From Candidatus Methylomirabilis limnetica (lineage in GTDB: Bacteria; Methylomirabilota; Methylomirabilia; Methylomirabilales; Methylomirabilaceae): a DNA stretch of 32,000 bases. The translations under genes and the position numbers were made by a program. The stretch is taken from contig NZ_NVQC01000020.1 in NCBI RefSeq assembly GCF_003044035.1, forward strand, positions 30,001 through 62,000. The letters run 5' to 3'. Shown here piece after piece: positions 1,602 through 31,214 of the stretch. The notes under the pieces were generated by a model. It worked only from the letters and a program-made list of their open reading frames with translations, was not told the DNA's origin and did no database searches. How positions within the stretch are numbered: position 1 is the stretch's first letter; each line of letters begins with the position of its first letter.

Positions 1602-1679
1602 ATGACGATCGCGCTGATCACGGGAATCACCGGGCAAGACGGCTCCTACCTGACCGAGCTGCGGCTCATGACAATTTAG
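1602..1679 (+). pseudogene. gmd: 5' remnant of a GDP-mannose 4,6-dehydratase (gmd) gene, 25 codons then stop
   Basis: GGAGA at 1591-1595, then ATG at 1602. Translation is MTIALITGITGQDGSYLTELRLMTI*. ALITGITGQDGSYLxE is the Gmd N-terminal Rossmann motif (E. coli: ALITGVTGQDGSYLAEF). Similarity ends after about codon 20. The TAG at 1677-1679 overlaps the 3' end of the convergent mptG. Confidence 0.6.
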
Positions 1680-2692
1680 CTAATCTCGGCCCCTCTATTG
1701 GAGGCCTTTGCTAAGAAGACGATCGCTTCAATTTTCCCTTGCATAGCCTGCATGAGACGATGCTTCAGGTGATCGGCTTGGTCCTGATCCATAGTCAGCC
1801 CATAGACCGCCGGTCCCCAGGAACTCTGCCCTACCCCTAACGCCCCAGCCCTTCGCATCGCCCTGGCCAGTTCCGCCCCCTGCGTGGTGGCAAAGGTTCC
1901 GCCCTGGACGGATCTGAACCAGTTTCCGACAATGCGCTGAATCCTGGTAAGCGCCTCACCGAATACAACGGGGTCGCGCTCGAGCACCGCCGGGAGCATC
2001 TGCATGAGCAGGATGCGGCTGAGCCGTCCCGCGGCGGTGGCAGGACGTAGGGCAAGCCGGCCAAACGCATCGACCTCTGCAACTCCGGCAAGCCCACGGT
2101 CGACATGGGGAATTGCCACGACAAAGGTCCACTCCTCTGGAAAGGGGTAGCGGACGATCGTGGGCGGAACGAGATTCCGGGTTCGTGTTTCGGTTTGCCT
2201 TAACCCACTCGAAACTCGAAACTCGAAACTCGAAACTGTTTCGCCTGCGGTGTTCATTCGCCGTCCGGCATCCACGACGAAACCGCCCTGCTCGAAGGCG
2301 GCGATCCCAATCCCCGACCGAGCCCCTCTGTCCATTACGGCTGCCAACTCCCGAACACTGGCGTCGATGGAGAAGAGACGAGCCAGCGCTGAAGCAACGC
2401 TGAGCGCAAGCTGCGTCCCGGAGCCCAAACCTGCATGGGCAGGGATTATTGCCTTGACGGAGATGTGAACCCCTTGCTGGAGATTGTAGTGGCGGAGAAA
2501 ACGGCGTGCCAACGTGAGGACTCGACCCCGCTCTCGCCCTACAGCCGAGAGGCGATCCGCCGGTGACGCCTCGAGAACGACCGAGGGCTCGCCGATCGCC
2601 AGCCCGATGCTCCCAAACATCCGACCCAATGAGCCGTCCAGGTCGATGAAGCCGAAGTGAAGTCTGGCAGGGGCCTTGACCGTGACGCCCAT
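1676..2692 (-). CDS. mptG: beta-ribofuranosylaminobenzene 5'-phosphate (beta-RFAP) synthase, H4MPT biosynthesis (GHMP-kinase fold); carries an in-frame repeat insertion
   Basis: Track ORF of 338 aa: MGVTVKAPARLHFGFIDLDGSLGRMFGSIGLAI...PAHAGLGSGTQLAL...GIGIAAFEQGGFVVDAG, the typical beta-RFAP synthase signature. The ATG overlaps the upstream gene's stop (TAATG). Confidence 0.8.
   Translation of the reverse strand: MGVTVKAPARLHFGFIDLDGSLGRMFGSIGLAIGEPSVVLEASPADRLSAVGRERGRVLTLARRFLRHYNLQQGVHISVKAIIPAHAGLGSGTQLALSVASALARLFSIDASVRELAAVMDRGARSGIGIAAFEQGGFVVDAGRRMNTAGETVSSFEFRVSSGLRQTETRTRNLVPPTIVRYPFPEEWTFVVAIPHVDRGLAGVAEVDAFGRLALRPATAAGRLSRILLMQMLPAVLERDPVVFGEALTRIQRIVGNWFRSVQGGTFATTQGAELARAMRRAGALGVGQSSWGPAVYGLTMDQDQADHLKHRLMQAMQGKIEAIVFLAKASNRGAEIS
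2166..2243 (-). repeat. Heptamer-armed palindromic element, copy E1 (in frame inside mptG)
   Basis: Minus strand reads CAGTTTCG AGTTTCG AGTTTCG AGTTTCG AGT-GGGTTAAGG-CAAACCGAAACACGAACCCGGAATCTCG. It encodes ...VSSFEFRVSSGLRQTETRTRNLV.... By hand alignment the arms are about 18/26 complementary. Confidence 0.75.
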
Positions 2693-5601: not shown

Positions 5602-5678
5602 GGACGGTTAGCTCAGATGGTTAGAGCGCCGCCTTCACACGGCGGAGGTCACTGGTTCGATCCCAGTACCGTCCACCA
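5602..5678 (+). tRNA. tRNA-Val (anticodon CAC), CCA encoded
   Basis: Hand-folded cloverleaf: acceptor GGACGGT/ACCGTCC, D arm GCTC-AGATGGTTA-GAGC, anticodon arm CCGCC-TTCACAC-GGCGG, variable AGGTC, T arm ACTGG-TTCGATC-CCAGT, discriminator A, then CCA. Confidence 0.9.
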
Positions 5679-19297: not shown

Positions 19298-19309
19298 CAC
19301 CAGGAGGAA

Positions 19310-19867
19310 ATGAGACGTATGGCGCGATCGAATCGTGGTGAGCGATGGTGGCAGTTCTGGGGGGCTGCGGCGGTGGTCTTGATGGCATCCGTGAGCTGGG
19401 CTGCGGATCCCCCGATGAAGCTCGGGTTTGTAGATTTTCAGATGGTCATCTCGCAGTCGAAAGAGGGGCAGGCGGCGATGACTACGGTTAAGGCGGAGGC
19501 AACCGAGAAACAGAAAGATATCAGCGCTAAAGAGGCTGAGATCAAGCAGATGGACGCGGATCTCCAGAAGCAGGCATCCGCCCTGAGTGATGCTGCAAAG
19601 AAGGACAGAGAGGAAGAGATTCGACGCAAGCTTCGTGATCTCAAGCGAGTGACAGAGGATTTCAATCGCGACCTGGCCAAGCGGGAAAGCGAGATGGTGA
19701 ACGAGTTGCTCAAGGATCTCACAGTTGTGACCCGGGACTATGGCAAAGAGAAAGGGTTCACCCTCATCGTTGAGAAGGGGCAGAGCGGTGTGATCTATAG
19801 TAACGATACGGCCGATCTCACTAAAGAGATCCTGGAACGCTACAACACCCGCCGAAGTAAAAAGTAG
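19310..19867 (+). CDS. skp: Periplasmic chaperone Skp/OmpH family
   Basis: Track ORF of 185 aa with a signal peptide (…LMASVSWA) and Lys/Glu-rich coiled-coil sequence. It occupies the canonical position between bamA and lpxD. Confidence 0.8.
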   Translation: MRRMARSNRGERWWQFWGAAAVVLMASVSWAADPPMKLGFVDFQMVISQSKEGQAAMTTVKAEATEKQKDISAKEAEIKQMDADLQKQASALSDAAKKDREEEIRRKLRDLKRVTEDFNRDLAKRESEMVNELLKDLTVVTRDYGKEKGFTLIVEKGQSGVIYSNDTADLTKEILERYNTRRSKK

Positions 19868-19869
19868 TT

Positions 19870-20955
19870 GTGGCGATGCAACTGAGGGAGCTGGCTGAAA
19901 AGCTGAGGTGCCGGCTGGTAGGCAACGATGATGTCGATGTCCGGCGTCTCGCTCCACTGCACGAGGCGGGTGAGGGAGACTTGGTCCTTGTGGTGAACGC
20001 ACGCGACCTACCGGCACTGGAGGCGACCAGGGCCTCTGCTGTGATTGTACGTGAGGGGAGTCCGCCCTGCTCTAAGCCGGCGTTGGTGACGAACGATCCG
20101 TATCTGGCTTTTGTCCAAGCCCTCCGTCTTTTCTACACCCCGGACCGTCCAACGCCTGGCGTCCATCCATCCAGCATCGTGGCTGAGGGCGCGCGTCTTG
20201 CAGAGGATGTTGCGATCGGGCCGCTCTCGGTCGTCGAGACAGATGTGACGATTGGCCCGAGAAGCATCGTGGGCGCCCAGGTCTACATCGGCAGGGGCAG
20301 CCACATTGGCGCCGACTGTTGGTTTTACCCGCAGGTCATGGTCCGGGAAGGCGTCGAGATCGGCGATCGTGTGATCATTCATAGCGGGGCTGTGATAGGT
20401 AGCGATGGCTTCGGGTATCTGAAGGACGGACAGGGGGTCCGCATCAAGATCCCGCAGGTGGGGCGGGTGATTCTCGAGGATGACGTTGAGATCGGTGCCA
20501 ACGTTACAATCGACCGAGCGACAATGGGGGCGACGCGGATCAAGCGTGGGACCAAGATCGACAATCTGGTCCAGATCGCACACAATGTTGTCGTAGGAGC
20601 GGATACGGTAATTGTGGCCCTGAGCGGCATCTCCGGCAGTACGAAGATCGGAGATCGGGTGACGCTGGCCGGCCAGGTCGGGGTCGTCGATCATGTTGAG
20701 ATCGGCGACGATGTGACCGTGGGAGCGCAGGCTGGAGTTAGTAAGAACCTTCCGCCTGGGGGTGTCTTCCTGGGTTCTCCCGCCGTACCGCATCTCGCAT
20801 TCAAGCGCAGCGTCGCCGCGGTGAATCGGCTCCCCCAAATCCTGAGTACCCTTAAGCGTATTGAGGCTCGCTTGGCATCGTTAGAGGGCGCCGCTTCGGA
20901 ACGGAGGGAGGGGGCGCAGCCTTCTCAGTCGGCGTCTGATGGGGGACCCCAGTGA
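19870..20955 (+). CDS. lpxD: UDP-3-O-acylglucosamine N-acyltransferase
   Basis: Track ORF of 361 aa with an LpxD N-domain followed by left-handed beta-helix hexapeptide repeats. The start is either GTG 19870 or ATG 19876. Confidence 0.9.
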
Positions 20956-21434
20956 TCGATAGTCGACAAATTCAGGATATGCTTCCCCACCGGTATCCCT
21001 TTCTCCTGGTCGATAGGATTCTTGAGATCGAGCCGGGAAAGAGGGTGGTAGGGCTCAAGAATGTGACCATTAACGAGGCATTCTTTCAGGGTCACTTTCC
21101 AGGGCAGCCGATTATGCCGGGAGTACTGGTGATCGAGGCGATGGCGCAGGTCGGAGGGATCCTGTTGATGCGGACGCTGAACGTGAGCGCCGAAAAGAAG
21201 CTCCTGTATCTTGCCGGCATCGACCGGGCCAGATTTCGCAGGCCTGTGCTGCCCGGGGATCAGGTGAGATTAGAGGTCGAGTTAATCCAACTCAGGAGCC
21301 GCACCTGTCGAATGCGAGCTAGCGCCATGGTGGATGGCAAGCTGGCTGTGGAGGCTGAGTTGTCGTGCATTGTCGTTGACCGGGGATCCCCTAACCTTCC
21401 TCCAGGCGTTCCAGTGGCGATGGGGGAACAATGA
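20952..21434 (+). CDS. fabZ: 3-hydroxyacyl-ACP dehydratase
   Basis: Contains [13 protein letters not shown] and [23 protein letters not shown] overlap with lpxD. Confidence 0.9.
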
Positions 21435-22207
21435 TACAAATTCATCCGTCAGCGGTTGTTGCACCGGAGGCCAAGCTTGGACCGGACTGTAGCGTCGGCG
21501 CCTTTTCGGTCATCGGTCCTGATGTCACCGTGGGGTCCGGGACCGTCATCGGTTCGCATACCCTCATTGATGGGATTACAGAGATCGGAGAACGGTGCCA
21601 GATTTTCTCTCACGTAGTCCTTGGCGCCGTGCCCCAAATCTTTCAGGATCGAAGTGAGATGACCCGGCTGATAATAGGTGACGAGACAGTCATCCGGGAG
21701 TTCGCATCGGTCCATCGCGGATCCTCGAAAGGCAGGGGCGCTACGATACTAGGGCGCAGGAACTACATCATGGCCTATGCGCATATTGCACACGATTGCC
21801 TCTTACGTGATGACGTGGTAGTCGCCAGTCAAGCTGGACTGGCCGGCCACGTCGAGATCGAAGACCGAGCGGTTATCGGTGGGCAGGCAGGGATCCATCA
21901 GTTCGTCCGTATCGGACAATACGCCATGGTTGGCGCCTGCTCGGCAGTTTCGCAGGACATCCCACCCTTCGTCAAGGCGCAGGGGGACCGGGCCAAGTGC
22001 TTCGGTTTGAATACGGTTGGTCTTCGCCGCCATGGTATTGGTCAGGAGGCGATCCTTCACCTCAAGCAAGCCTATCGGTTACTCTTCCTTTCCAACCTTA
22101 ATACGTCTCAGGCTCTGGAGAGGATTGCATCGGAGGTGAGCTCCTGTCCAGAGATCGATCACCTGATTCACTTCATCAAGCTCTCGACGAGAGGGATCGC
22201 GCGCTAA
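21431..22207 (+). CDS. lpxA: Acyl-ACP--UDP-N-acetylglucosamine O-acyltransferase
   Basis: Track ORF of 258 aa: [10 protein letters not shown], hexapeptide repeats and the LpxA C-terminal helical domain. ATGA overlap with fabZ. Confidence 0.9.
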
Positions 22208-22213
22208 CGCGAT

Positions 22214-22334
22214 GTGTCGAGTTTCGAGTTCCGAGTTTCGTGTTGAAGAAGATCTTACGTGCAAGGGAACCTTCGACTCAGCACCTGGAACTGGAGAGCC
22301 AAACCCGAAACCCGAAACTCGCAACTCGAAACGG
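22214..22334 (+). repeat. Heptamer-armed palindromic element, copy E3 (longest, MITE-like), filling the lpxA-lpxI spacer
   Basis: Left arm CGAGTTTCGAGTTCCGAGTTTCGTGTTG; 54-nt centre; right arm CAAACCCGAAACCCGAAACTCGCAACTCGAAACGG. By hand alignment the arms match at 23/28 positions as an inverted repeat. Confidence 0.8.
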
Positions 22335-22342
22335 TAAAGTCG

Positions 22343-23143
22343 ATGGAATGCCTCGGGATCATAGCCGGCGGAGGGCCGCTTCCGGTCGTAGCGGCGCGGG
22401 AAGCGCGCATGCAGGGGTTCAAGGTCGTGGCGGTGGCCATCGAAGAGGCTGCCTCTGCCGATCTGGCCAATGAAGTAGATACGATCTGTTGGGTGGGAGC
22501 CGGACAGCTTGGCCGGTTGATCGCGGTGCTAAAGCAAGAGAAGGTGACGAATGCTGTGATGCTTGGGAAAGTCCCGCTCGACCGCCTCTTCTCGCGCGTA
22601 AAGACCGATCTGGATGGCTTGCTGCTCTATCTGAAGCTCAAAGACCGACGCGGCGATACGATCCTCGCGGGTGTAGGCGATGCGTTGAAACAGAAAGGGA
22701 TCACTCTGCATGATTGTCGGCGGTTCCTTTCTTCGATCGTATTGCGGAAGGGGATGCTGACGGCGCGGGCGCCAAGTTCCTTAGAGCAGCAAGATATCGA
22801 CTTTGGAAGAGAGCTTGCCAGAGCCATCGCGCAGTTGCGAATCGGCCAAACTGTCGTGGTCAAACGCCGAACTGTCCTGGCAGTGGAGGCGATCGAGGGA
22901 ACTGATGCCGCCATTCGCCGCGGCGGCAAACTTGGGAATGGGGGAGTGGTGGTCGTCAAGGTTGGGCGTCCCGACCAGGATATGCGCTTCGATCTTCCGG
23001 TCATCGGACCGGAGACCGTGGTAGCGCTCGAAGAGGCGGGCGCGACTGCGCTTGCCCTGGATGCCGATCAGACCTTGATTCTAGATCGGGAAAAGGTAGT
23101 GGCGACTGCCGACCGACTTGGGCTAGCGATGGTGGCAGATTAG
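22343..23143 (+). CDS. lpxI: UDP-2,3-diacylglucosamine pyrophosphatase LpxI (DUF1009)
   Basis: The ATG at 22343 gives MECLGIIAGGGPLPVVAAREA..., a typical LpxI N-terminus. It sits between lpxA and lpxB. The track start at 22259 merely translates the repeat element. Confidence 0.75.
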   Translation: MECLGIIAGGGPLPVVAAREARMQGFKVVAVAIEEAASADLANEVDTICWVGAGQLGRLIAVLKQEKVTNAVMLGKVPLDRLFSRVKTDLDGLLLYLKLKDRRGDTILAGVGDALKQKGITLHDCRRFLSSIVLRKGMLTARAPSSLEQQDIDFGRELARAIAQLRIGQTVVVKRRTVLAVEAIEGTDAAIRRGGKLGNGGVVVVKVGRPDQDMRFDLPVIGPETVVALEEAGATALALDADQTLILDREKVVATADRLGLAMVAD

Positions 23144-23153
23144 CAGCAGGACG

Positions 23154-23219
23154 GCCATCAGCCGTCAGCTATCCGCCAAGACCCAGAGCTGAATGCTGAC
23201 TGCTGATGGCTGATCGCTG
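23154..23219. repeat. Second heptamer-armed palindrome, (nnTCAGC)n ... (GCTGAnn)n
   Basis: GCCATCAGCCGTCAGC (23154-23169) and GCTGACTGCTGATGGC (23195-23210) match 15/16 as an inverted repeat. The right arm is heptamer-periodic: GCTGAAT GCTGACT GCTGATG GCTGATC GCTG. Confidence 0.65.
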
Positions 23220-23271
23220 CCTCTAAGAGCGAGTTCGCTCATGCCGATGCAATGGGAAGGAAGAATCCGGA

Positions 23272-24216
23272 ATGAAGAACGGGCATCCAATTCGAGTCGG
23301 TGTGGTGGGTGTTGGCTACGTGGGGCAGCACCACGCCAGAATCTATTCGGAGATGACGGGCGTTGAGCTGGTCGGGGTGGTCGATATCGACGAGACCCGC
23401 CTGCAGGAGTTGGGGACGCGGTACCGTATCCAACTGTGTCGCGATTACCGCGAGCTCCTGGGAAGGGTGGATGCCGTCAGTGTAGCGGTGCCGACCCTGG
23501 CGCACTACTCGATCACCAAGGAGTTCCTGGAGCGCGGGGTAGACGTCCTGGTGGAGAAACCGATCGCGCAGTCCCTCGCTCAGGCCGACGAACTGGTTGG
23601 GATTGCCAAGGCTGACGATCGAATCTTCCAGGTTGGGCATATCGAGCGATTCAATGGTGCGGTCAAGGCGCTCGAGAGCATTGTGAGGAGCCCTGGTTTC
23701 ATCGAATGCCACCGTCTTGGCCCTTTCGCCCACCGCAACACGGATGTTGATGTTGTTCTCGACCTGATGATCCATGATATTGACATCGTGCTGAACCTGA
23801 TCAAGTCGCCTGTCGTCGCAGTAACGGCCGTCGGTGTCCCGGTCATCTCCGATCAGGTGGATATCGCCAACGCACGGCTCCAGTTTGAGTCGGGGTGTGT
23901 CGCGAACCTGACCGCCAGCCGGGTGAGCGTCGAACGAGTCCGACGGGTGCGGATATTTCAGCGGGACACCTTCATCTCTCTTGACTATTCTCAGCAAGAG
24001 ATTGCTGTCTACCATCGCATCCCGGCGGCGGATTCAGATGCCGAAGCACCTCCCACGATCGTCAAGGAAGAGATTCCTATCGATAAGGCAGAGCCGCTTC
24101 GCGTCGAGCTCGAGAGCTTTATCGAGTGCGTCCGGACTAGAAAGAGACCGCTGGTCTCAGGCGAGGACGGCCGGGACGCCCTGAAGGTGGCCTCTCAGAT
24201 TATGGAGAAACTGTAG
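23272..24216 (+). CDS. Gfo/Idh/MocA-family NAD(P)-dependent oxidoreductase (possible GnnA-like UDP-GlcNAc 3-dehydrogenase)
   Basis: Track ORF of 314 aa with N-terminal Rossmann fold IRVGVVGVGYVGQHH and the EKP motif (VLVEKPIA). It is embedded between lpxI and lpxB. Confidence 0.75.
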   Translation: MKNGHPIRVGVVGVGYVGQHHARIYSEMTGVELVGVVDIDETRLQELGTRYRIQLCRDYRELLGRVDAVSVAVPTLAHYSITKEFLERGVDVLVEKPIAQSLAQADELVGIAKADDRIFQVGHIERFNGAVKALESIVRSPGFIECHRLGPFAHRNTDVDVVLDLMIHDIDIVLNLIKSPVVAVTAVGVPVISDQVDIANARLQFESGCVANLTASRVSVERVRRVRIFQRDTFISLDYSQQEIAVYHRIPAADSDAEAPPTIVKEEIPIDKAEPLRVELESFIECVRTRKRPLVSGEDGRDALKVASQIMEKL

Positions 24217-24221
24217 GCCAG

Positions 24222-25394
24222 ATGCGAGATGGCCGGATTCTGATCGTCGCAGGGGAGCCCTCAGGAGACTTGCATGCCGCTTGCGTAGTTCAAGAACTCC
24301 TGCGGCGCGCCCCCCACCTTACTATAGAGGGAATCGGGGGAGACCGGATGCGCCAAGCGGGTGTCCGCCTCCATGCACATGTTGGCGATCTGGCGGTGGT
24401 CGGCATCGTCGAGGTTGCTGCCAGGCTTCCCGCCATCTGGCGGGCATATCGGAGCATGATCCGGTGTTTACGCGAGCGACGCCCGGATCTGATGATCCTT
24501 GTAGATTTTCCGGACTTCAACCTGAGGCTCGCCCGCCGGGCATTCCGACTTGGCATCCCCGTTGTCTATTTCATCAGTCCGCAGGTGTGGGCTTGGCGTG
24601 CTGGCCGGATACGGTCGATCGCGAAGTATGTCCGACGGCTCCTGGTGATCTTTCCCTTTGAGGAGAGTTTCTATCGCGAAAGGGGGATCGAAGCCGTGTA
24701 TGTCGGTTACCCGCTCCTGGATCAGTTAACGTCTTCACCATCAATGCAGGAGGCAAGGCGCCGCCTGGAACTGGAGGGGACGGCCCCAGTGCTGGGGCTC
24801 TTGCCCGGCAGCCGCGTGGGTGAGATCATGCGACATCTACCTATCTTACTCAGGTCGATCAGGCAGCTGATGATAGAGCAGCCGGGTCTTCGCGTCATCA
24901 TTGCCGTGGCCGACGGTCTTCCCCTCGACCTCATCAGATCCTACTTGAATCAAGAGGTTATCTCGGCGAGGGTTGTTCAGGGGCGAACCTATGAGGTCAT
25001 GGCTGCCTCGGACGTGATCCTTGTGGCTTCAGGTACTGCGACCCTGGAGGCGGCCATTATCGGTACCCCCATGGTGATCGTGTATCGCCTCGCATTTCTC
25101 TCGTGGCTGCTGGGCCGCGCGTTGATCAGGGTTCCGTACATCGGCATGGTAAATCTGGTAGCGGGAAGACGAGTTGTACCTGAGCTGATTCAATTTCACG
25201 CGACGCCCGAGCGGATCGCTGACGAAGTGCGCCGGTTGCTCCTGTCGACGGAGCAACGTCTCCAGATGCGGCAGGATTTCCAGCAGGTACGTGATCGATT
25301 GGGGCCGCCGGGAGCTATAGGTCGGACGGTAGACGTTATCCTTGAGTGCTTGCAGTCTGGCGCCGGGGAGGGGATGGCGGTCCAGAGAGGGTAA
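24222..25394 (+). CDS. lpxB: Lipid-A-disaccharide synthase
   Basis: Track ORF of 390 aa: ILIVAGEPSGDLHAA..., VYFISPQVWAWR, and a GT-B C-terminal half (SGTATLEAA). Confidence 0.9.
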   Translation: MRDGRILIVAGEPSGDLHAACVVQELLRRAPHLTIEGIGGDRMRQAGVRLHAHVGDLAVVGIVEVAARLPAIWRAYRSMIRCLRERRPDLMILVDFPDFNLRLARRAFRLGIPVVYFISPQVWAWRAGRIRSIAKYVRRLLVIFPFEESFYRERGIEAVYVGYPLLDQLTSSPSMQEARRRLELEGTAPVLGLLPGSRVGEIMRHLPILLRSIRQLMIEQPGLRVIIAVADGLPLDLIRSYLNQEVISARVVQGRTYEVMAASDVILVASGTATLEAAIIGTPMVIVYRLAFLSWLLGRALIRVPYIGMVNLVAGRRVVPELIQFHATPERIADEVRRLLLSTEQRLQMRQDFQQVRDRLGPPGAIGRTVDVILECLQSGAGEGMAVQRG

Positions 25395-26089
25395 TGGAGA
25401 AGTCGCCCTTTTCCAGAGCGGTCGCTGTGCTCAGGGAAGGTCGTTTTGTGCTGCGTATCGTTCCATGGCTTGCTGCGAGGGTTATGCAATGCCTATTTCG
25501 GCTGCTGCGGATCGTTCATGTTGGCCGTACGTATCCTGAAAGCTGCTGGGCAAAGGGGGAGCGAATCATCGTGGTCTTCTGGCACGGCCGGCTCCTGATG
25601 ATGCCCTTTGTCTATCCCGGGAAGCCGGGAGTGCTCCTTGTCAGCCAGCATCGGGATGGGGAGTATTTCAGCCGAATTGCAACGCTTCTCGGGTTCGAGG
25701 TGATTCGAGGCTCAGCGACACGTGGCGGCATGCGCGCTCTCAAGCAGATGATTCGCGCCATCAAAGGAAGGCTGAACCTGGTTGTTACCCCGGATGGCCC
25801 AAAGGGACCGCGAGCAAAGGTCAGGCCCGGCGTCATCGAGGTGGCGAAGCTGACGGGGGCTCCTATTGTGCCGGTGAGCTTTAGTGCGTCGCGACGCCGA
25901 ATCCTCCAGAGCTGGGACGCCTTCCTCGTACCGGTCCCATTCTCCCGTGCCGTATACATCTGGGGGGAACCGATGTACGTTCCTCCGACGGCGACTAAGG
26001 ATGAGGTGACAAAGTATCAGGAAGCCCTCGAAGAACGCCTCGACCTGCTCACGATGAAGGCCGACGATTACTTCAGGGCGAATCTGTGA
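25394..26089 (+). CDS. DUF374 / lysophospholipid-acyltransferase-like protein
   Basis: The ATG at 25394 overlaps the lpxB stop (TAATG). MEKSPFSR...VFWHGRLLMMPF...VSQHRDGEYFSRI...RGSATRGG...TPDGPKGP is the DUF374 pattern often seen next to waaA. Confidence 0.7.
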   Translation: MEKSPFSRAVAVLREGRFVLRIVPWLAARVMQCLFRLLRIVHVGRTYPESCWAKGERIIVVFWHGRLLMMPFVYPGKPGVLLVSQHRDGEYFSRIATLLGFEVIRGSATRGGMRALKQMIRAIKGRLNLVVTPDGPKGPRAKVRPGVIEVAKLTGAPIVPVSFSASRRRILQSWDAFLVPVPFSRAVYIWGEPMYVPPTATKDEVTKYQEALEERLDLLTMKADDYFRANL

Positions 26090-26105
26090 CGACCGGTATG
26101 CCGGG

Positions 26106-27392
26106 ATGTATTCTGTCTACACCCTCCTGCTGACCCTCGTTTTACTTGTCTGGTCACCCTCTATCATTTTGAGGGCCCTTCGAAGCCCCTACTACCGGGA
26201 GGGATGGCGTGAGCGTCTGGGTTGTTACCCTAAACCACTGCTCTCACGGCTTCAAGCCGTTCAGCCTGTCTGGATACATGCCGTCTCGGTGGGGGAGGTC
26301 GGCGCTGCCTCCGTCCTGGCTAATCTCTGGACCGCTCGTCGGCCAACGCTACCGCTCCTGGTCTCAACAGTAACCGGAACCGGACGAGAGGTTGCCAGAC
26401 GAACGTTTCCGCAGGCAGCGGCAGTGGTGTACTTCCCGATCGATCTCCCAATGATCGTTCATCGGGCCATTGCTACCGTGAGACCCCGCCTCATCCTCCT
26501 CACAGAGACAGAAATCTGGCCAAATTTTCTCTACGAATGTGCTGCCTCAAGGATTCCGGTAGCCATCATCAATGGTCGGATATCAGAGCGCTCTTTTTCA
26601 CGCTACTGCCTCGTCCGACCCTTCATCCGCCGGGTCCTTCAACGCGTTGATCTCTTTTGCATGCAAACCGGCACAGACGCGAAGCGGATTCTTGCGTTGG
26701 GTGCCAGTCCTGAGCGGGTGCATGTGGTGGGCAATCTCAAGGTCGATGCAGCCCCCCACGCTGACGCCTCATCGCTTGCCGAACAGTGGCGTCGGGAACT
26801 TCACATCGAAGCCGAGATACCGATCCTGGTGGCAGGAAGTACTCATGCAGGTGAGGAGGAGGTATTGCTGCAGGTCTTTGGTCGCCTGCGCGGTGAGTTC
26901 CCGGACCTTCTGTTGATTCTGGCGCCACGCCATCCCGAGCGCGTCACCCAGGTAGAGACGATGGTTGCAGACTATGGCCTGACTGCAGTGAGACGGAGCG
27001 CCTTAGCTCAAGGAAGAGGCGACGCAAAGGAAGTGATCCTCGTGGACACCGTTGGTGAGCTGTCGACACTATATGCGGTGGGGAGTATCAGCTTTGTTGG
27101 AGGGAGCCTCATACCCAGAGGTGGCCACAACCTGCTTGAGCCGGCCCTGTACGGTCGTCCGATTCTGTTCGGTCCCCATATGGAAAACTTCGCTGAAGCG
27201 AGCGCATACCTAATCGAATGGGGGGCGGCTATCCAGGTAAGCGATGCGGCGGACCTTACCAGGCAGCTCGCCATACTCCTGCGTGATCCCGCCGCCAGGG
27301 AGAGTATGGGGCAAGCTGCAATGGCAGCTTTGGCGGCCCATCACGGCGCGTGTGAGCGGACGGTAGCCCTTCTGGAGAAGTTCGTTTTGTGA
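26106..27392 (+). CDS. waaA: 3-deoxy-D-manno-octulosonic acid (Kdo) transferase
   Basis: Track ORF of 428 aa with an N-terminal membrane anchor, then WIHAVSVGE, ETEIWPN and GGSL...GGHN..EPA. Confidence 0.9.
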   Translation: MYSVYTLLLTLVLLVWSPSIILRALRSPYYREGWRERLGCYPKPLLSRLQAVQPVWIHAVSVGEVGAASVLANLWTARRPTLPLLVSTVTGTGREVARRTFPQAAAVVYFPIDLPMIVHRAIATVRPRLILLTETEIWPNFLYECAASRIPVAIINGRISERSFSRYCLVRPFIRRVLQRVDLFCMQTGTDAKRILALGASPERVHVVGNLKVDAAPHADASSLAEQWRRELHIEAEIPILVAGSTHAGEEEVLLQVFGRLRGEFPDLLLILAPRHPERVTQVETMVADYGLTAVRRSALAQGRGDAKEVILVDTVGELSTLYAVGSISFVGGSLIPRGGHNLLEPALYGRPILFGPHMENFAEASAYLIEWGAAIQVSDAADLTRQLAILLRDPAARESMGQAAMAALAAHHGACERTVALLEKFVL

Positions 27393-28513
27393 AAGGCATA
27401 GAGGCGCTCTCGGCCTGGACGCAACACTGCATGGCGGAGGCTTCGGAGCAATGGACCGCTCAAGCCTGGCTGACGTGCTTGCGTCCGGTCTCGTATGCGT
27501 ATGGGGCAGCAATCTCGCTTCGGGCTGCGCTCTTTGCGTCTGGTCTCGCCAGGACTCGCCGACTTCCAGTCCCGGTGCTGAGCGTTGGAAACGTAAGTGC
27601 TGGCGGAAGCGGGAAGACCCCGTTCGTTGAGATGTTGGCCGCTCGGCTGCGCGAGCAAGGCCAGCGGGTGGTCATCATTTCACGGGGGTATCGAGGTGGT
27701 TTGAAGAAGCCAACAATTATCAGCGACGGCAGAGATCTACGATGTGAACCGCCGGTCGCCGCTGACGAGGCCTATATGCTGGCCAGGCACCTGCCGGGTG
27801 TCGCTGTCTTGACGGGAGCCGACCGATACCGAGTTGGTGAGGTTGCCCTTGAGCAGGTGGATTGCGGTGTCATTATTCTGGATGATGGGTTTCAACATCT
27901 CAGGCTCTACCGCGATCTGGATATCGTCCTGGTTGACGCGGGCAACCCTCTTGGCTACGGTCGGCTGTTGCCCTCGGGGTTGTTGCGGGAGCCTCCGGAG
28001 GCGCTCGGACGGGCCGACATCGTGGTCGTCACCCACGCTGACGCCGGACGGGACCTGGACCCCGCCATGCAGGCGATCCGACGGTATGCGCCGACCACCC
28101 CAATCGCCCTGGCTGTTCATCGGCCTATTGGCCTCATCGATGTCAACGGCGGAGAACGCCTGGGCCTTGAACGTCTCACTGGTCAGCGGTTGTTGGCAGC
28201 CTCTGGCATCGCCAATCCGAGCCGGTTTGAGGCCACCCTTGTTCAGCTTGGCGCCTTCGTTGTGGCTCGTCGTGTCTTCCCCGATCACCACCGCTATTCT
28301 ACCGCCGACCTGGAGATCATCAACGAAGCGGCCAGGAAGAGCGGCGCCTCCATGGTAGTCACCACAGAAAAGGATATGGTAAAATTGACGTGCTTGGACC
28401 TTGCAAAGGTGGAGGCACCGTTCTACGCCCTGTCGATCTCACTCGAATTGGTGGAAGGGGTGGAGGTGTTAGACGCCATGGTGAGCCGCATGGTGAAACT
28501 GAGCGCCTCATGA
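27389..28513 (+). CDS. lpxK: Tetraacyldisaccharide 4'-kinase
   Basis: P-loop VGNVSAGGSGKTP, then ISRGY and DDGFQH. GTGA overlap with waaA. Confidence 0.9.
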   Translation: MKGIEALSAWTQHCMAEASEQWTAQAWLTCLRPVSYAYGAAISLRAALFASGLARTRRLPVPVLSVGNVSAGGSGKTPFVEMLAARLREQGQRVVIISRGYRGGLKKPTIISDGRDLRCEPPVAADEAYMLARHLPGVAVLTGADRYRVGEVALEQVDCGVIILDDGFQHLRLYRDLDIVLVDAGNPLGYGRLLPSGLLREPPEALGRADIVVVTHADAGRDLDPAMQAIRRYAPTTPIALAVHRPIGLIDVNGGERLGLERLTGQRLLAASGIANPSRFEATLVQLGAFVVARRVFPDHHRYSTADLEIINEAARKSGASMVVTTEKDMVKLTCLDLAKVEAPFYALSISLELVEGVEVLDAMVSRMVKLSAS

Positions 28514-29493
28514 AGCCCAAGACCATGGGCGGTATTGCCGCCTATCTCGAATACCTCCTCGCGATGGGACTCGCGAAGGGATTGTTGTACCTGCCATCTT
28601 CAGTGGCCTACTCTGTAGGTGAGGGATTGGCTGGGCTGCTCTACCGCTTTGATCACAAGCATCGCCTTGTTGCTCATGAGAACCTGCATCGGGCCTTTCA
28701 TGGTGAGCTTTCCTCTATGGAGATTGATGAACTTACGCGCTTATGCTTTATCAATCTCGGCCGAACCGTTGTCGAGACCTGTCGGAGTCTCAAGATCGAT
28801 CGAGAGAACTTCCGGCAAGTTATCGGGGTCGAAGGGTATGAGCACATCCAGCAGGCCAAGCGCAGAGGGAAAGGAATCATCTACGTCACCGCGCACTTGG
28901 GTTCGTGGGAACTGCTGCCGCTTGCGGTAGGCCTTATGGGTGAGCCGTTGTCTGCTGTGACGCGCCCCCTGGATAATCCATACCTCGATAGGGCAATCAA
29001 CCGGTTGCGGACCGCCTGGGGAACGAGGGTATTAGCCAAGAAACAGGTGATGCCGGTGCTGGTGCGGGCGCTGCTTCGTGGGGAGAGCGTCGCGATCCTC
29101 ATGGATCAAAACACCACCTGGAAAGAGGGGGTCTTTGTCGATTTCTTTGGTATGCAGGCCTGCACGACCCTTGCGCCAGCTCTCCTGGCCCTCAGAACCG
29201 ACGCATCGGTTCTTCCTGCCGCCATCATACGGTGCGGGCGGGACCGGCACACTGTTCTTGTGGAGAAAGAGATCCCCTTGATCAGGACCGGGCGCCTGAA
29301 GGCAGACGTCATTGCCAACACCGCCTCTTTCACCAAGGCCATCGAAGCGTTCGTTCGGAGGGAGCCGGCCCAGTGGCTCTGGCTCCATCGCAGATGGAAA
29401 ACACAACCGCGTGCCACGTGCCAGGTTCCGAACCTGGAATCCGGAACCCGATACGTGGAATCTGGAACTGCGAGGCAGAACCCGACACAATGA
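28510..29493 (+). CDS. lpxL: Lipid A biosynthesis late (lauroyl/myristoyl-type) acyltransferase, LpxL/HtrB family; C-terminal tail encoded by a repeat element
   Basis: The ATG at 28510 (ATGA overlap with lpxK) gives MKPKTMGGIAAYLEY.... It has the HX4E motif TAHLGSWELL, then ...PAQWLWLHRRWK, followed by about 30 extra residues. Confidence 0.8.
   Translation: MKPKTMGGIAAYLEYLLAMGLAKGLLYLPSSVAYSVGEGLAGLLYRFDHKHRLVAHENLHRAFHGELSSMEIDELTRLCFINLGRTVVETCRSLKIDRENFRQVIGVEGYEHIQQAKRRGKGIIYVTAHLGSWELLPLAVGLMGEPLSAVTRPLDNPYLDRAINRLRTAWGTRVLAKKQVMPVLVRALLRGESVAILMDQNTTWKEGVFVDFFGMQACTTLAPALLALRTDASVLPAAIIRCGRDRHTVLVEKEIPLIRTGRLKADVIANTASFTKAIEAFVRREPAQWLWLHRRWKTQPRATCQVPNLESGTRYVESGTARQNPTQ
29411..29488 (+). 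repeat. Degenerate heptamer-periodic element, copy E5, at the lpxL / heptosyltransferase junction
   Basis: Period-7 string ...ACCTGGA ATCCGGA ACCCGAT ACGTGGA ATCTGGA ACTGCGA.... Inverted repeat GGTTCCG (29424-29430) / CGGAACC (29442-29448). Positions 29462-29488 match 22285-22311 of copy E3 at 20/27 positions, ungapped and aligned by hand. Confidence 0.55.
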
Positions 29494-31214
29494 GTGTGGC
29501 GACGCTTCGCATCAGGCGTACCTTCGAACCAGACCAGATTCGATCTATCCTGGTCGTAAGCCCTAATTGGTTGGGCGACGCGGTCCTCGCTCTGCCTGCG
29601 CTCGCCAACCTCCGCCGCTCCTTTCCTGAAGCAAGAATCTCACTTCTCGTGCGCCCGTGGCTTAGCCAGTTGTTTCGATCCTTACCGTTCATCGACGAGC
29701 TCGTTGAGTTGCCAAGCAGAGGTGAGCTGATGTGGGCGGCGACAGCACTACGGCAACGAGACTTTGAATTGGCCCTGCTCTTACCGAACAGCTTCCGAAC
29801 AGCTCTGATCGTCCGGCTGGCAGGAATTCCGCACCGGGTCGGGTATGTGGCCGATGGACGGGGCCCTCTTTTGACGGTTGGGGTGTGCCCCTCACCTTCG
29901 AGTTTCGAGTTTCGAGTTTCGAGTTACGCGTCACGAGATTCTTTGAACCCGAAACCCGAAATCCGAAACCCGAAACTTCATCATCAGGCAGACTCCTACC
30001 TTGGCCTGCTCCGATCGCTTAAGTGGGATGCGTGGTCGCGTCCGACAGCTTCTCTGCTTCCGCCGGGAAGCGACGCGGAAGCAGAGAAGCTGCTCACCGA
30101 CTTGGGTCTCCCCTCTCACACCATGTTAATTGGCATGACCCCCGGTGCTGCCTATGGGACGGCAAAGCGTTGGCCGACTGACCGGTTTGCCGCAGCAGCC
30201 GATCTTTTGATTGATCGCCTTGGAGCCACCGTCCTGTTATTCGGTTCACCGAGGGAAGCCTCGTTAACAAGCGCCATCCGCGAGCGGATGCGCGGAGCTG
30301 CTATCGACTTCGGTGGCCGGACGACTCTTCCCGAATTGTCCGGCCTGCTCAGTCGATGCGCGCTGCTCCTCACGAACGATACGGGGACGATGCATCTCGC
30401 CTCCGCGTTAGGGGTGCCGTGCGTCGCCCTGTTCGGCCCGACGGATCCTCTCCGAACAGGGCCTCTCGGCTCTGGACATCGGGTTCTTCACGATCCGCCG
30501 GCCTGCAGTCCGTGTCGCTACCGCGACTGCCCGATCGACCATCGATGCATGCAGGCGCTGGACGTGGAGAGGGTTGTGGCTGCCGTGGAGGCCCTTCTCA
30601 CACGATCAACCTCCACTACCGAGGAGAACGTCCGGATGCGGCCCGCGGTCTTTCTGGACCGGGACGGTACCATCAACGAGGAGATCGGGCCGATTCAACA
30701 CCCAGACTTGATGAGACCGATTCCCGGGGCGGCAGAAGCGTTGAAACGCCTTGGCGAGGAAGGGTATCTGCGGATCGTGGTCACCAATCAGGCGCGAGTG
30801 GCCCGAGGGGACGCAACGGAAGAGCTGGTTGAAGCGACCCATCGGCGACTCCTGCAGTTGCTCCGCGAGGCGGGAGGCGAGATGGATGCCTTCTACTACT
30901 GCCCTCATCATCCTCGGGAAGGGCTCTTCCCGTACAGACGGGCCTGCCTGTGTCGTAAGCCTGCCCCCGGGTTGATTCAGCAGGCGGCCTTTGAGCAGCA
31001 GGTAGACATGGAGCGATCGTACGTCGTTGGGGATAAGGTGAGCGATATGCTGCTGGCAGATCGGCTAGGCCTCCCCTCGGTGCTGGTACTGACCGGCTAT
31101 GGGCGCGAGTCGTTGGATCGCCTTCATGCGGCGGGAGGTCCAATGCCCGCTCATACGGCTAGAGATCTGCTGGGCGCCACCGAGTGGATTGTGCAACGGA
31201 GCGGCCGAGGATGA
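29490..31214 (+). CDS. Fusion protein: GT9 ADP-heptose:LPS heptosyltransferase (WaaF-like) plus D,D-heptose 1,7-bisphosphate phosphatase (GmhB)
   Basis: The ATG at 29490 (ATGA overlap with lpxL) gives MSVATLRIRR..IRSILVVSPNWLGDAVLALPAL (GT9 N-terminus)...NDTGTMHLASALGVP. From 30636 the sequence is MRPAVFLDRDGTINEE...VVTNQ...CPHHP...CLCRKP...VGDKVSDM, a GmhB HAD phosphatase with a Zn-Cys motif. Confidence 0.8.
   Translation: MSVATLRIRRTFEPDQIRSILVVSPNWLGDAVLALPALANLRRSFPEARISLLVRPWLSQLFRSLPFIDELVELPSRGELMWAATALRQRDFELALLLPNSFRTALIVRLAGIPHRVGYVADGRGPLLTVGVCPSPSSFEFRVSSYASRDSLNPKPEIRNPKLHHQADSYLGLLRSLKWDAWSRPTASLLPPGSDAEAEKLLTDLGLPSHTMLIGMTPGAAYGTAKRWPTDRFAAAADLLIDRLGATVLLFGSPREASLTSAIRERMRGAAIDFGGRTTLPELSGLLSRCALLLTNDTGTMHLASALGVPCVALFGPTDPLRTGPLGSGHRVLHDPPACSPCRYRDCPIDHRCMQALDVERVVAAVEALLTRSTSTTEENVRMRPAVFLDRDGTINEEIGPIQHPDLMRPIPGAAEALKRLGEEGYLRIVVTNQARVARGDATEELVEATHRRLLQLLREAGGEMDAFYYCPHHPREGLFPYRRACLCRKPAPGLIQQAAFEQQVDMERSYVVGDKVSDMLLADRLGLPSVLVLTGYGRESLDRLHAAGGPMPAHTARDLLGATEWIVQRSGRG
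29897..29978 (+). repeat. Heptamer-armed palindromic element, copy E4 (in frame inside the heptosyltransferase domain)
   Basis: TTCG AGTTTCG AGTTTCG AGTTTCG AGTTACG CGTCACG AGATTCT TTGAACC CGAAACC CGAAATC CGAAACC CGAAACT T. It encodes SSFEFRVSSYASRDSLNPKPEIRNPKL. Confidence 0.8.

Follow-up and report, generated by a model that had tools for sequence, protein, structure and literature searches.

The 32,000-nt stretch of DNA analysed here (the window) comes from Candidatus Methylomirabilis limnetica (phylum NC10; assembly GCF_003044035.1, contig NZ_NVQC01000020.1, positions 30,001 to 62,000) and carries near its 3′ end a plus-strand gene, at 29490-31214, that encodes a 574-aa fusion of WaaF, a heptosyltransferase II of the GT9 family, with the HAD phosphatase GmhB. 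Within the waaF part, and in frame with it, lies a palindrome made of tandem heptamers. A preliminary description of the window had pointed to a heptamer-periodic element at 29897-29978, inserted in frame in a GT9 heptosyltransferase domain and accompanied by an in-frame copy in a second enzyme. Here we delimit this insert by comparison with related alleles, follow its heptamer arms within the window and in other genomes, and weigh the explanations for its origin.

The insert in waaF-gmhB

The host open reading frame (ORF) contains GT9 and HAD domains according to Pfam and scores 203 bits against the NCBIfam model for heptosyltransferase II (TIGR02195; cut-off 134.6), in keeping with the GT9 assignment made earlier, and every relative examined has waaF fused to gmhB. 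The heptamer periodicity is real: in the phase first described, AGTTTCG is repeated three times exactly and followed once by AGTTACG. The extent of ~82 nt given at that time needs slight widening, since the alignment of filled with empty alleles and the breaks in blastn homology place the whole inserted segment at 29894-29981 on the plus strand (88 nt). Its 5′ arm (29897-29925, plus strand) comprises 4.1 exact units of TTCGAGT, or GAGTTTC (Tandem Repeats Finder, TRF: 100% match, score 58); the central loop of 21 nt (29926-29945, plus strand), the TACGCGTCACGAGATTCTTTG region, reads as degenerate heptamers and is called by TRF with a period of 21 at 79%; and the 3′ arm (29946-29978, plus strand) comprises 4.4 units of AACCCGA, or GAAACCC/GAAATCC (TRF: 91% at 29946-29976). 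In sequence, the region is CTC ACC (TTCGAGT)x4 TACGCGTCACGAGATTCTTTG (AACCCGA AACCCGA AATCCGA AACCCGA AAC) TTCAT. The arms are complementary over their full length apart from a single A.C mismatch in each unit of the sense strand, seen as a G.U pair in the antisense strand, and the folding energy of the RNA is -28.8 kcal/mol in the sense (z -4.3) and -40.8 kcal/mol in the antisense orientation (z -5.5) relative to shuffled sequences. No stop codon occurs in any of the six frames of either arm or of its A/G and T/C variants (for example, GAG TTT CGA GTT TCG AGT TTC and GAA ACC CGA AAC CCG AAA CCC). The insert occupies residues 135-164 of the WaaF product and yields the peptide SSFEFRVSSYASRDSLNPKPEIRNPKL, translation of the host ORF returning this peptide and both of its flanks as previously described.

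In an alignment of WaaF orthologues, the segment is confined to the window sequence and its closest relative (P0001), which is 95% identical and also 574 aa long. All 23 remaining sequences, down to 62% identity, lack it and read VCPS-GGT-VL-HQADSYLG or similar at the site; they include the next nine relatives (P0002-P0010), which are 24 residues shorter (550 aa) at 83-90% identity by BLASTP and 86-94% in the alignment. Because orthologues lack the segment and the repeat recurs elsewhere in the window, the segment is an in-frame insertion, as had been proposed, and not a conserved, non-repetitive part of the protein; its net length is a multiple of three, it contains no stop and it leaves the ORF intact.

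Empty sites, which the preliminary description had suggested looking for, were found in four relatives. Homology by blastn to three of these alleles (L002, L003 and L004) ends at 29893, and to the fourth (L006) at 29891, and it restarts at 29982 in all four. Where the filled allele has 88 nt, the empty alleles have 16 unrelated nt, GGGCGGGACGGTGCTG in L002, which amounts to a net gain of 72 nt, or 24 codons, and neither the filled/empty alignment nor blastn reveals a target-site duplication at the waaF insert. The filled allele did not arise by a clean insertion: it lacks 16 nt present in the empty allele and has no duplicated target. Homology of the replaced 16 nt to the loop was considered and rejected, as the match by eye (~7 of 14 positions) is not convincing. 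A second filled allele (L001), from a separate sample and assembly, is 95.4% identical to the window over 8.8 kb, and its insert differs from that of the window at 4 of 88 positions, with flanks that differ by 4.1-5.6%. The presence of the same insert, with four substitutions, in an independent assembly shows that the segment is real and inherited. The filled L001 and the empty L002 diverge from each other by 2.6-3.4% and each from the window by 4.1-5.6%; presence of the insert therefore does not track flank similarity, which argues that the allele segregates in a recombining population. Since the ancestral 16 nt could not be regenerated by deletion, the alleles must owe their distribution either to exchange through homologous recombination or to sorting from an ancestor that was polymorphic.

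Outside the insert, the comparison of the window with L001 gives a ratio of nonsynonymous to synonymous substitution rates (dN/dS) of 0.23, with a dS of 0.109, whereas the four changes inside it are all nonsynonymous, with no synonymous change, and its dN is 0.057 versus 0.026 for the rest of the gene. An AlphaFold model of the fusion protein built on a 109-sequence alignment has a mean predicted local distance difference test (pLDDT) score of 89.5 and a predicted template modelling (pTM) score of 0.88; an earlier 25-sequence alignment gave a pLDDT of 66, unusable near the insert. The only long low-confidence stretch of the model (residues 139-160) falls within the insert, which is placed in the N-terminal Rossmann-like domain, between a strand (130-133, LTVG) and a helix (166-176, ADSYLGLLRSL). 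The location had been described as inter-strand: the segment does lie in a loop between secondary-structure elements, which in the model run from strand to helix and are thus not strictly two strands. Foldseek returns Escherichia coli WaaF (1PSW) as the top match of the model, with a TM-score of 0.84, and GmhB (3L8E) with 0.89, and HMMER alignments to 1PSW and 3TOV are gapped or broken at the position of the insert. According to the model, the insert is a low-confidence and probably disordered loop of 29 aa (net +24 aa) in an otherwise intact GT-B fold. It follows from purifying selection on the gene and a WaaF-like model that the N-terminal domain tolerates the insert as a loop and that the host gene is not a pseudogene.

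Related arrays and S23p genes

Searching the window with GAGTTTCGAGTTTC, a 14-mer of two units, and allowing up to three mismatches yields 19 matches where 2.5 are expected; none of 100 shuffled sequences reaches 19, so the enrichment is not a product of chance. The matches are grouped in three clusters (~2204-2238, 22212-22334 and 29893-29978), and GRGTTTC-type hairpins are present in three copies in the 32-kb window, with further copies in congeners. The second in-frame copy claimed for another enzyme was found in a beta-RFAP synthase family gene (1676-2692, minus strand; NCBIfam TIGR00144, Pfam), where repeat analysis, Pfam, TIGR00144 and alignment locate it at 2171-2238 on the minus strand. 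It consists of (GAGTTTC)x4.4, a loop and a decayed 3′ arm, and encodes SSFEFRVSSGLRQTETRTRNLV. Relatives of this protein at 78-99% identity carry diverging inserts of variable length (SSFEFRV.., SGFGFRV.. and a longer ..CQVPGSEPETRNPKLETR.. variant), and M. oxyfera-like sequences carry none; this copy is an older, decaying insertion that is polymorphic among relatives. Across Methylomirabilis the site is hypervariable, with at least four length or sequence variants of the repeat-derived peptide and empty deeper relatives, which suggests a hotspot remodelled repeatedly. The third copy (22212-22334, plus strand; repeat scans, TRF, Pfam) is intergenic, between lpxA and lpxI, with GRGTTTC/GAAACYC arms around an unrelated loop of 60 nt and fold z-scores of -2.2 and -3.7; a shorter form occurs in L004, and no recognisable arrays in L006.

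The copies had been taken for the same element, a view that holds for the arms, which are common to them, and fails for the loops, since the three window hairpins align in their arms only. Their shared orientation and translated frame, to which attention had also been drawn, are of little consequence. Three 7-nt units make 21 nt, so every frame yields a cyclic permutation of EFRVSSF and a common frame carries no information; the reverse complement of (GRGTTTC)n..(GAAACYC)n keeps the same form, so a common orientation is nearly uninformative, only the A-left/C-right asymmetry telling the strands apart. Shared frame and orientation were therefore rejected, as arithmetically trivial, as a sign of targeted insertion.

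Beyond the window, one genome per GTDB species was scanned for exact GRGTTTC x3, a search selective for this one heptamer. It returned at least 120 stretches, against a chance expectation that we roughly estimate at ~2. The matches listed include Planctomycetota, Acidobacteriota, Verrucomicrobiota, Bacteroidota, Chloroflexota, Desulfobacterota, Cyanobacteria, Proteobacteria and one Methylomirabilota genome. Among the 120 matches listed, 36 have an inverted partner array within 150 nt, in 32 of these 36 pairs GRGTTTC precedes GAAACYC, and arrays of other heptamers are also present at many of the loci. Judging from this distribution, the heptamer-hairpin family is not lineage-specific. In viral contigs, the target heptamer was found at 36 loci and three composition-matched control heptamers at 16, 5 and 9; as GAGTTTC is only 2-7x commoner than such controls, the idea that it is the one universal heptamer was dropped. 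What is general is the architecture; the heptamer unit varies, GRGTTTC being only moderately favoured.

Two cross-phylum hairpins interrupt real genes in frame, each lying between Pfam domains: one (L079, 398-470) in a molybdopterin oxidoreductase of a Verrucomicrobiota metagenome-assembled genome (MAG) and the other (L119, 2213-2298) in a DnaE2-like error-prone polymerase of an Acidobacteriota MAG. Automatic in-ORF calling had flagged ten such hairpins, of which eight were rejected from their translations alone, with no Pfam check. At L039, L053, L059 and L115 the real gene starts just 3′ of the hairpin, L008, L116 and L124 are apparent spurious high-GC antisense frames, and L067 looks dubious from its translation.

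An iterative search of all ORFs of all loci identified eight genes of PF05635, the 23S rRNA-intervening sequence protein (S23p), at 78-132 bits (cut-off 33.8), all of them array-flanked and all among the at least 120 array-selected loci. The flanks take the form (GAGTTTC)4-ORF-(GAAACTC)4 at L113, (AAGTTTC)4-ORF-(GAAACTC)4 at L067 and (AGGTTRA)n-ORF-(TYAACCT)n at L088, and in Methylomirabilota (L078) a 149-aa ORF lies between a GRGTTTC..GAAACTC hairpin and a (GAAACCC)x4 array. The same arrangement is found in Ca. M. lanthanidiphila (L273, 2930-3430) and at L275: in these two and L078, an S23p gene (TIGR02436) sits between atpA and atpG of the F1 ATP synthase operon, with a GAGTTTC..GAAACYC hairpin 5′ of it, (GAAACCC)x4-5 at its 3′ end and the A-left/C-right asymmetry seen in the waaF insert, whose arms have the same unit and polarity as those flanking S23p at these three loci. 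The atpA-atpG S23p ORF reads through the 3′ (GAAACCC)n array, ending in ..TRNPKPETRNPKP*, and is conserved across Methylomirabilota genomes.

The association was also approached in reverse, starting from 80 metagenome loci chosen by S23p protein similarity alone, with a 3-sequence S23p alignment as the query, and using the 61 with at least 200 nt on both sides. The threshold for calling an array was fixed, at 12 matches in 14 positions for a lag of 7. A heptamer array lies within 200 nt of the S23p gene upstream in 49 of the 61 loci, downstream in 39 and on both sides in 35, over a background in these loci of 0.044 arrays per 200 nt, and in 27 of the 61 the units on the two sides are reverse complementary within one mismatch. 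S23p protein identity decreases with heptamer distance (r -0.42; 0 of 2000 permutations), pairs with the same heptamer being 67% identical versus 57% at a heptamer distance of 4; this covariation argues that gene and arms travel together. The closest S23p homologues (P0241-P0248) lie on contigs of only 536-1168 nt, a length typical of assembly breaks at flanking repeats, which hints at multi-copy or repeat-flanked genes in the metagenomes concerned. The closest solved S23p structure is that of Xanthomonas campestris XCC0516 (PDB 2GSC, five chains), and a supplementary table of Rehm et al. (2015) places GGGAATC array no. 15 over the XCC0516 start codon (PMC4692102). In Coxiella, the 23S rRNA intervening sequence (IVS) combines an inverted-repeat stem, GACAGAT x3 and an S23p ORF (PMC4990558).

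Origin of the insert and its counterparts

We consider it likely that the waaF segment is an ORF-less miniature of S23p/IVS-type palindromic elements armed with heptamer arrays (GRGTTTC, GAAACYC) and translated as a tolerated loop. It would descend from a long, S23p-carrying form, or have been spread by the same process, the long form having the layout of the 23S rRNA IVS, an inverted-repeat stem with S23p in its loop. The insert may derive from a pre-existing copy, copied in the course of break repair or by template switching, or it may come from an array-synthesising process. These routes are favoured over cut-and-paste transposition by the missing target duplication, the exchange of 16 nt and loops that are unrelated between copies. 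The insert would have no function for WaaF, but would be a passenger filtered for a length that is a multiple of three, absence of stops and a loop position; that it survived is owed to its stop-free arms, its net length and its location at the protein surface. The regular A.C mismatches of the sense strand would weaken the hairpin in the mRNA and may ease translation through it.

Several points weigh against this interpretation. The control heptamers in viral contigs (16, 5 and 9 loci) are also well above chance, and part of the cross-phylum signal could reflect a general propensity for slippage. Host phylogeny may contribute to the covariation of S23p with heptamer, and the sampled S23p loci all belong to one subfamily, with 51% or more identity to the query. 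The ORF search found no PF05635 gene in the 32-kb window, so the S23p link to this genome rests on congeners; the 21-nt waaF loop itself holds no ORF and does not form a stem that encloses S23p, which makes it a miniature derivative at best. A 26-nt probe for the waaF loop had no match in JGI metagenome contigs, a weak negative, as the closest relatives are in ENA and Logan; with only the arms shared between copies, no donor or master copy was found. No transposase was noticed beside the arrays inspected, where no systematic search for a transposase or reverse transcriptase was made, and to our knowledge S23p has no enzymatic activity and no known transposase fold.

More tentatively, S23p might be the trans-acting partner of heptanucleotide arrays, driving their spread rather than riding in the hairpins, a proposal that we hold to be possible though doubtful. 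S23p (PF05635/TIGR02436) is a pentameric four-helix bundle related to Avd, the accessory protein of diversity-generating retroelements. In this scheme it would recognise arrays of ~4-5 heptamers, perhaps with one for each subunit, and would act with a polymerase or repair pathway of the host to start or copy inverted arrays at sites that had none.

The most serious competitor, in our judgement still improbable, is a local origin de novo, in which the arrays are simple sequence repeats (SSRs) grown by polymerase slippage, hairpin-mediated template switching gives rise to the partner array, neither a mobile element nor a dedicated protein takes part, and S23p genes merely land in, or are retained in, such regions. 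Heptanucleotide repeats are the most over-represented class of long SSRs in many bacteria, for which slippage has been proposed (cited in PMC4679880, PMC4692102), and in the present data the arrays formed by control heptamers far above chance, the variation in array length and sequence between close relatives and the differences between loops point the same way. Yet the empty waaF site holds no heptamer seed, the entire 88 nt being foreign to it; slippage alone does not predict so narrow a repertoire, all window arrays of at least four units being GRGTTTC/GAAACYC; the arm order is strongly biased among the matches listed; and S23p identity covaries with the heptamer. A classical MITE (miniature inverted-repeat transposable element), that is, a deletion derivative of an insertion sequence moved in trans by a transposase for which the heptamer arrays serve as terminal or subterminal recognition repeats, would account for the inverted terminal arrays, the small size, the several copies per 32 kb and the polymorphism in presence, and yet is less probable again: the target is not duplicated and loses 16 nt, internal sequences are not homologous between copies, a search that was not exhaustive noticed no transposase among the translated ORFs beside the arrays inspected, and what such arms repeatedly enclose is the gene for S23p, a four-helix bundle for which no transposase fold is known.

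Selection of the 24 extra residues for a changed function of WaaF, such as acceptor recognition, membrane association or regulation, we regard as very unlikely. The N-terminal domain of GT9 enzymes, where the insert lies, binds the lipid acceptor, and the insert has been kept in two lineages (dS ~0.11) while the gene was under purifying selection. Against an adaptive role, the insert evolves faster than the rest of the gene, with every one of its four changes nonsynonymous, it is predicted to be disordered, and the relative closest by its flanks does without it; the same repeat DNA moreover recurs between genes and in unrelated proteins, so the peptide is dictated by the repeat. An artefact of assembly or sequencing has a negligible probability, even though repeats readily lead to misassembly and S23p contigs are often very short, because two independent assemblies, 4-5% divergent, hold the segment at the same site and in frame with four internal substitutions.

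Rickettsia palindromic elements (RPE), reportedly described by Ogata et al. in 2000, are comparable in several respects to the miniature element that we favour. They are mentioned in a review of MITEs (PMC10969869) and, like the QMITEs of Coxiella (PMC5896051), share with the waaF insert their position as in-frame palindromic repeats in coding genes, including housekeeping genes, their translation as extra surface segments and their polymorphism among relatives. RPE differ in being homologous over their whole length, lacking tandem heptamers and being known from a single genus, whereas elements of the waaF type share only their arms, which are 7-nt arrays, and occur in many phyla; the heptamer build makes homology to RPE unlikely. 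The waaF insert has the terminal inverted repeats of a MITE, in the form of its inverted arrays, and lacks both the target-site duplication and the homology of copies throughout.

The cyanobacterial short tandemly repeated repetitive sequences (STRR) are long SSRs with a heptanucleotide unit. Other published heptanucleotide arrays are those of GGGAATC in Xanthomonas, with 70-75 convergent pairs per genome (Rehm et al. 2015, PMC4692102), the GGACCGG x4 elements within and between genes of Geobacter metallireducens (PMC2700814) and TAACTGA repeats (PMC4679880); they number tens to hundreds per genome. The waaF insert is like them in its 7-nt unit, in an array length of ~4 units and in pairing with an inverted array, as they often do, in a form able to fold into hairpins or cruciforms: it has at least three tandem 7-nt units and a convergent reverse-complement array 21 nt away. 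It differs in its heptamer, and the published arrays have been treated as mostly intergenic SSRs or G-quadruplex motifs, in reports that include no S23p link and no dated in-frame insertion with an empty site.

An IVS with an S23p ORF reportedly also occurs in the 23S rRNA of Leptospira. The S23p-carrying 23S IVSs of Coxiella, Xanthomonas and Brucella (PMC4990558) have an inverted-repeat stem around a PF05635 ORF, in Coxiella with tandem heptamers beside it, and like the waaF insert they enter an essential gene at a point that can accommodate additional sequence; they have long been suspected to have a transposon-like origin (PMC4990558). They are located in rRNA and cut out by RNase III, whereas the waaF copy has no ORF and lies in an mRNA that must be translated through it for the downstream two thirds of the protein; RNase III excision would destroy the waaF mRNA and is therefore not expected. 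The logic proposed for S23p is that of repetitive extragenic palindromic (REP) sequences and their paired form (REPIN), short abundant palindromes spread via REP-associated tyrosine transposases (RAYT), whose single-copy gene is itself repeat-flanked (PMC3116915, PMC3733652). REPs differ in being 20-40 nt long, GTAG/CGTC-tagged and by definition extragenic, RAYT being an HUH (IS200/IS605-like) enzyme, and the 88-nt, intragenic waaF insert has no GTAG/CGTC head. Our literature search found no paper linking S23p with heptamer repeats in general, and a text search for the repeat sequence gave no bacterial match.

Two old puzzles in the genomes of bacteria, the excess of heptanucleotide repeats, often in inverted pairs, and the orphan S23p genes of rRNA IVSs, appear to belong to one system. 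If so, the origin of the repeats would become directly testable and S23p homologues would gain a candidate function. Should S23p also be the driver, it would make up, together with its arms, a class of mobile palindromic element that is widespread and had gone unrecognised. The heptamer repeats whose over-representation has been known since 1990/2007 would then be the ORF-less progeny of this class, the classical IVSs would be its insertions into rRNA, and its in-frame insertions would give rise to new loops in proteins, as in waaF. The waaF insert itself constitutes a natural experiment, in which a repeat-dictated peptide of 24 residues has entered an enzyme of the lipopolysaccharide (LPS) core and filled and empty alleles are available in closely related populations, and these alleles are useful for studying the acquisition of protein loops and the tolerance of GT9 enzymes.

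Other repeats and genes of the window

In the window, arrays of at least four heptamer units are all GRGTTTC/GAAACYC; two further repeats fall short of these in length and strength, namely a CATCAGC/GCTGATG hairpin (23150-23219) and a decayed GGAAYCY region. Rfam covariance models at their gathering scores match only a tRNA in the window (5602-5675) and none of the hairpins, and PADLOC gave no match. The CATCAGC hairpin, which is unrelated in sequence to the others, lies between lpxI and a GFO/IDH/MocA gene and reads (CCATCAG/CCGTCAG)..(GCTGAAT GCTGACT GCTGATG GCTGATC). It has counterparts in L006 (3620-3675), as (CATCAGC)x2.9 TAGA (GCTGACG..)x3.4, and in L001 (104-134), and since its position is kept among relatives it is older than the waaF insert.

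The decayed stretch at 29410-29480 has a heptamer/21-nt periodicity (GGAATCC GGAACCC GATACGT GGAATCT GGAACTG), is preceded by a CCAGGTTC/GAACCTGG palindrome, codes for the C-terminus of an LpxL-like acyltransferase and abuts the start of waaF. It is present in all relatives and thus represents an ancient copy, in frame, of a GGAAYCY-type array that recalls the GGGAATC unit of Xanthomonas. In L004, at 20110-20275, arrays of (AGGCTGA)x2.7 and (CTTCAGY)x3.3 lie ~85 nt apart inside a 17-nt inverted repeat (GGTAACTACTCAGGT / ACCTGAGTAGTTAC), and a 22-codon ORF in the loop, MRDHTKLRKDLEWLDSSLARQF, might be a candidate remnant of an S23p N-terminus.

The waaF-gmhB gene closes a lipid A/LPS core cluster that spans 19300-31214 of the window, in the order lpxD-fabZ-lpxA-lpxI-(GFO/IDH/MocA)-lpxB-DUF374-waaA-lpxK-lpxL-like-waaF::gmhB; apart from lpxA, lpxI, lpxL and waaF, the genes are identified through their counterparts in the syntenic relatives L001, L004 and L006.

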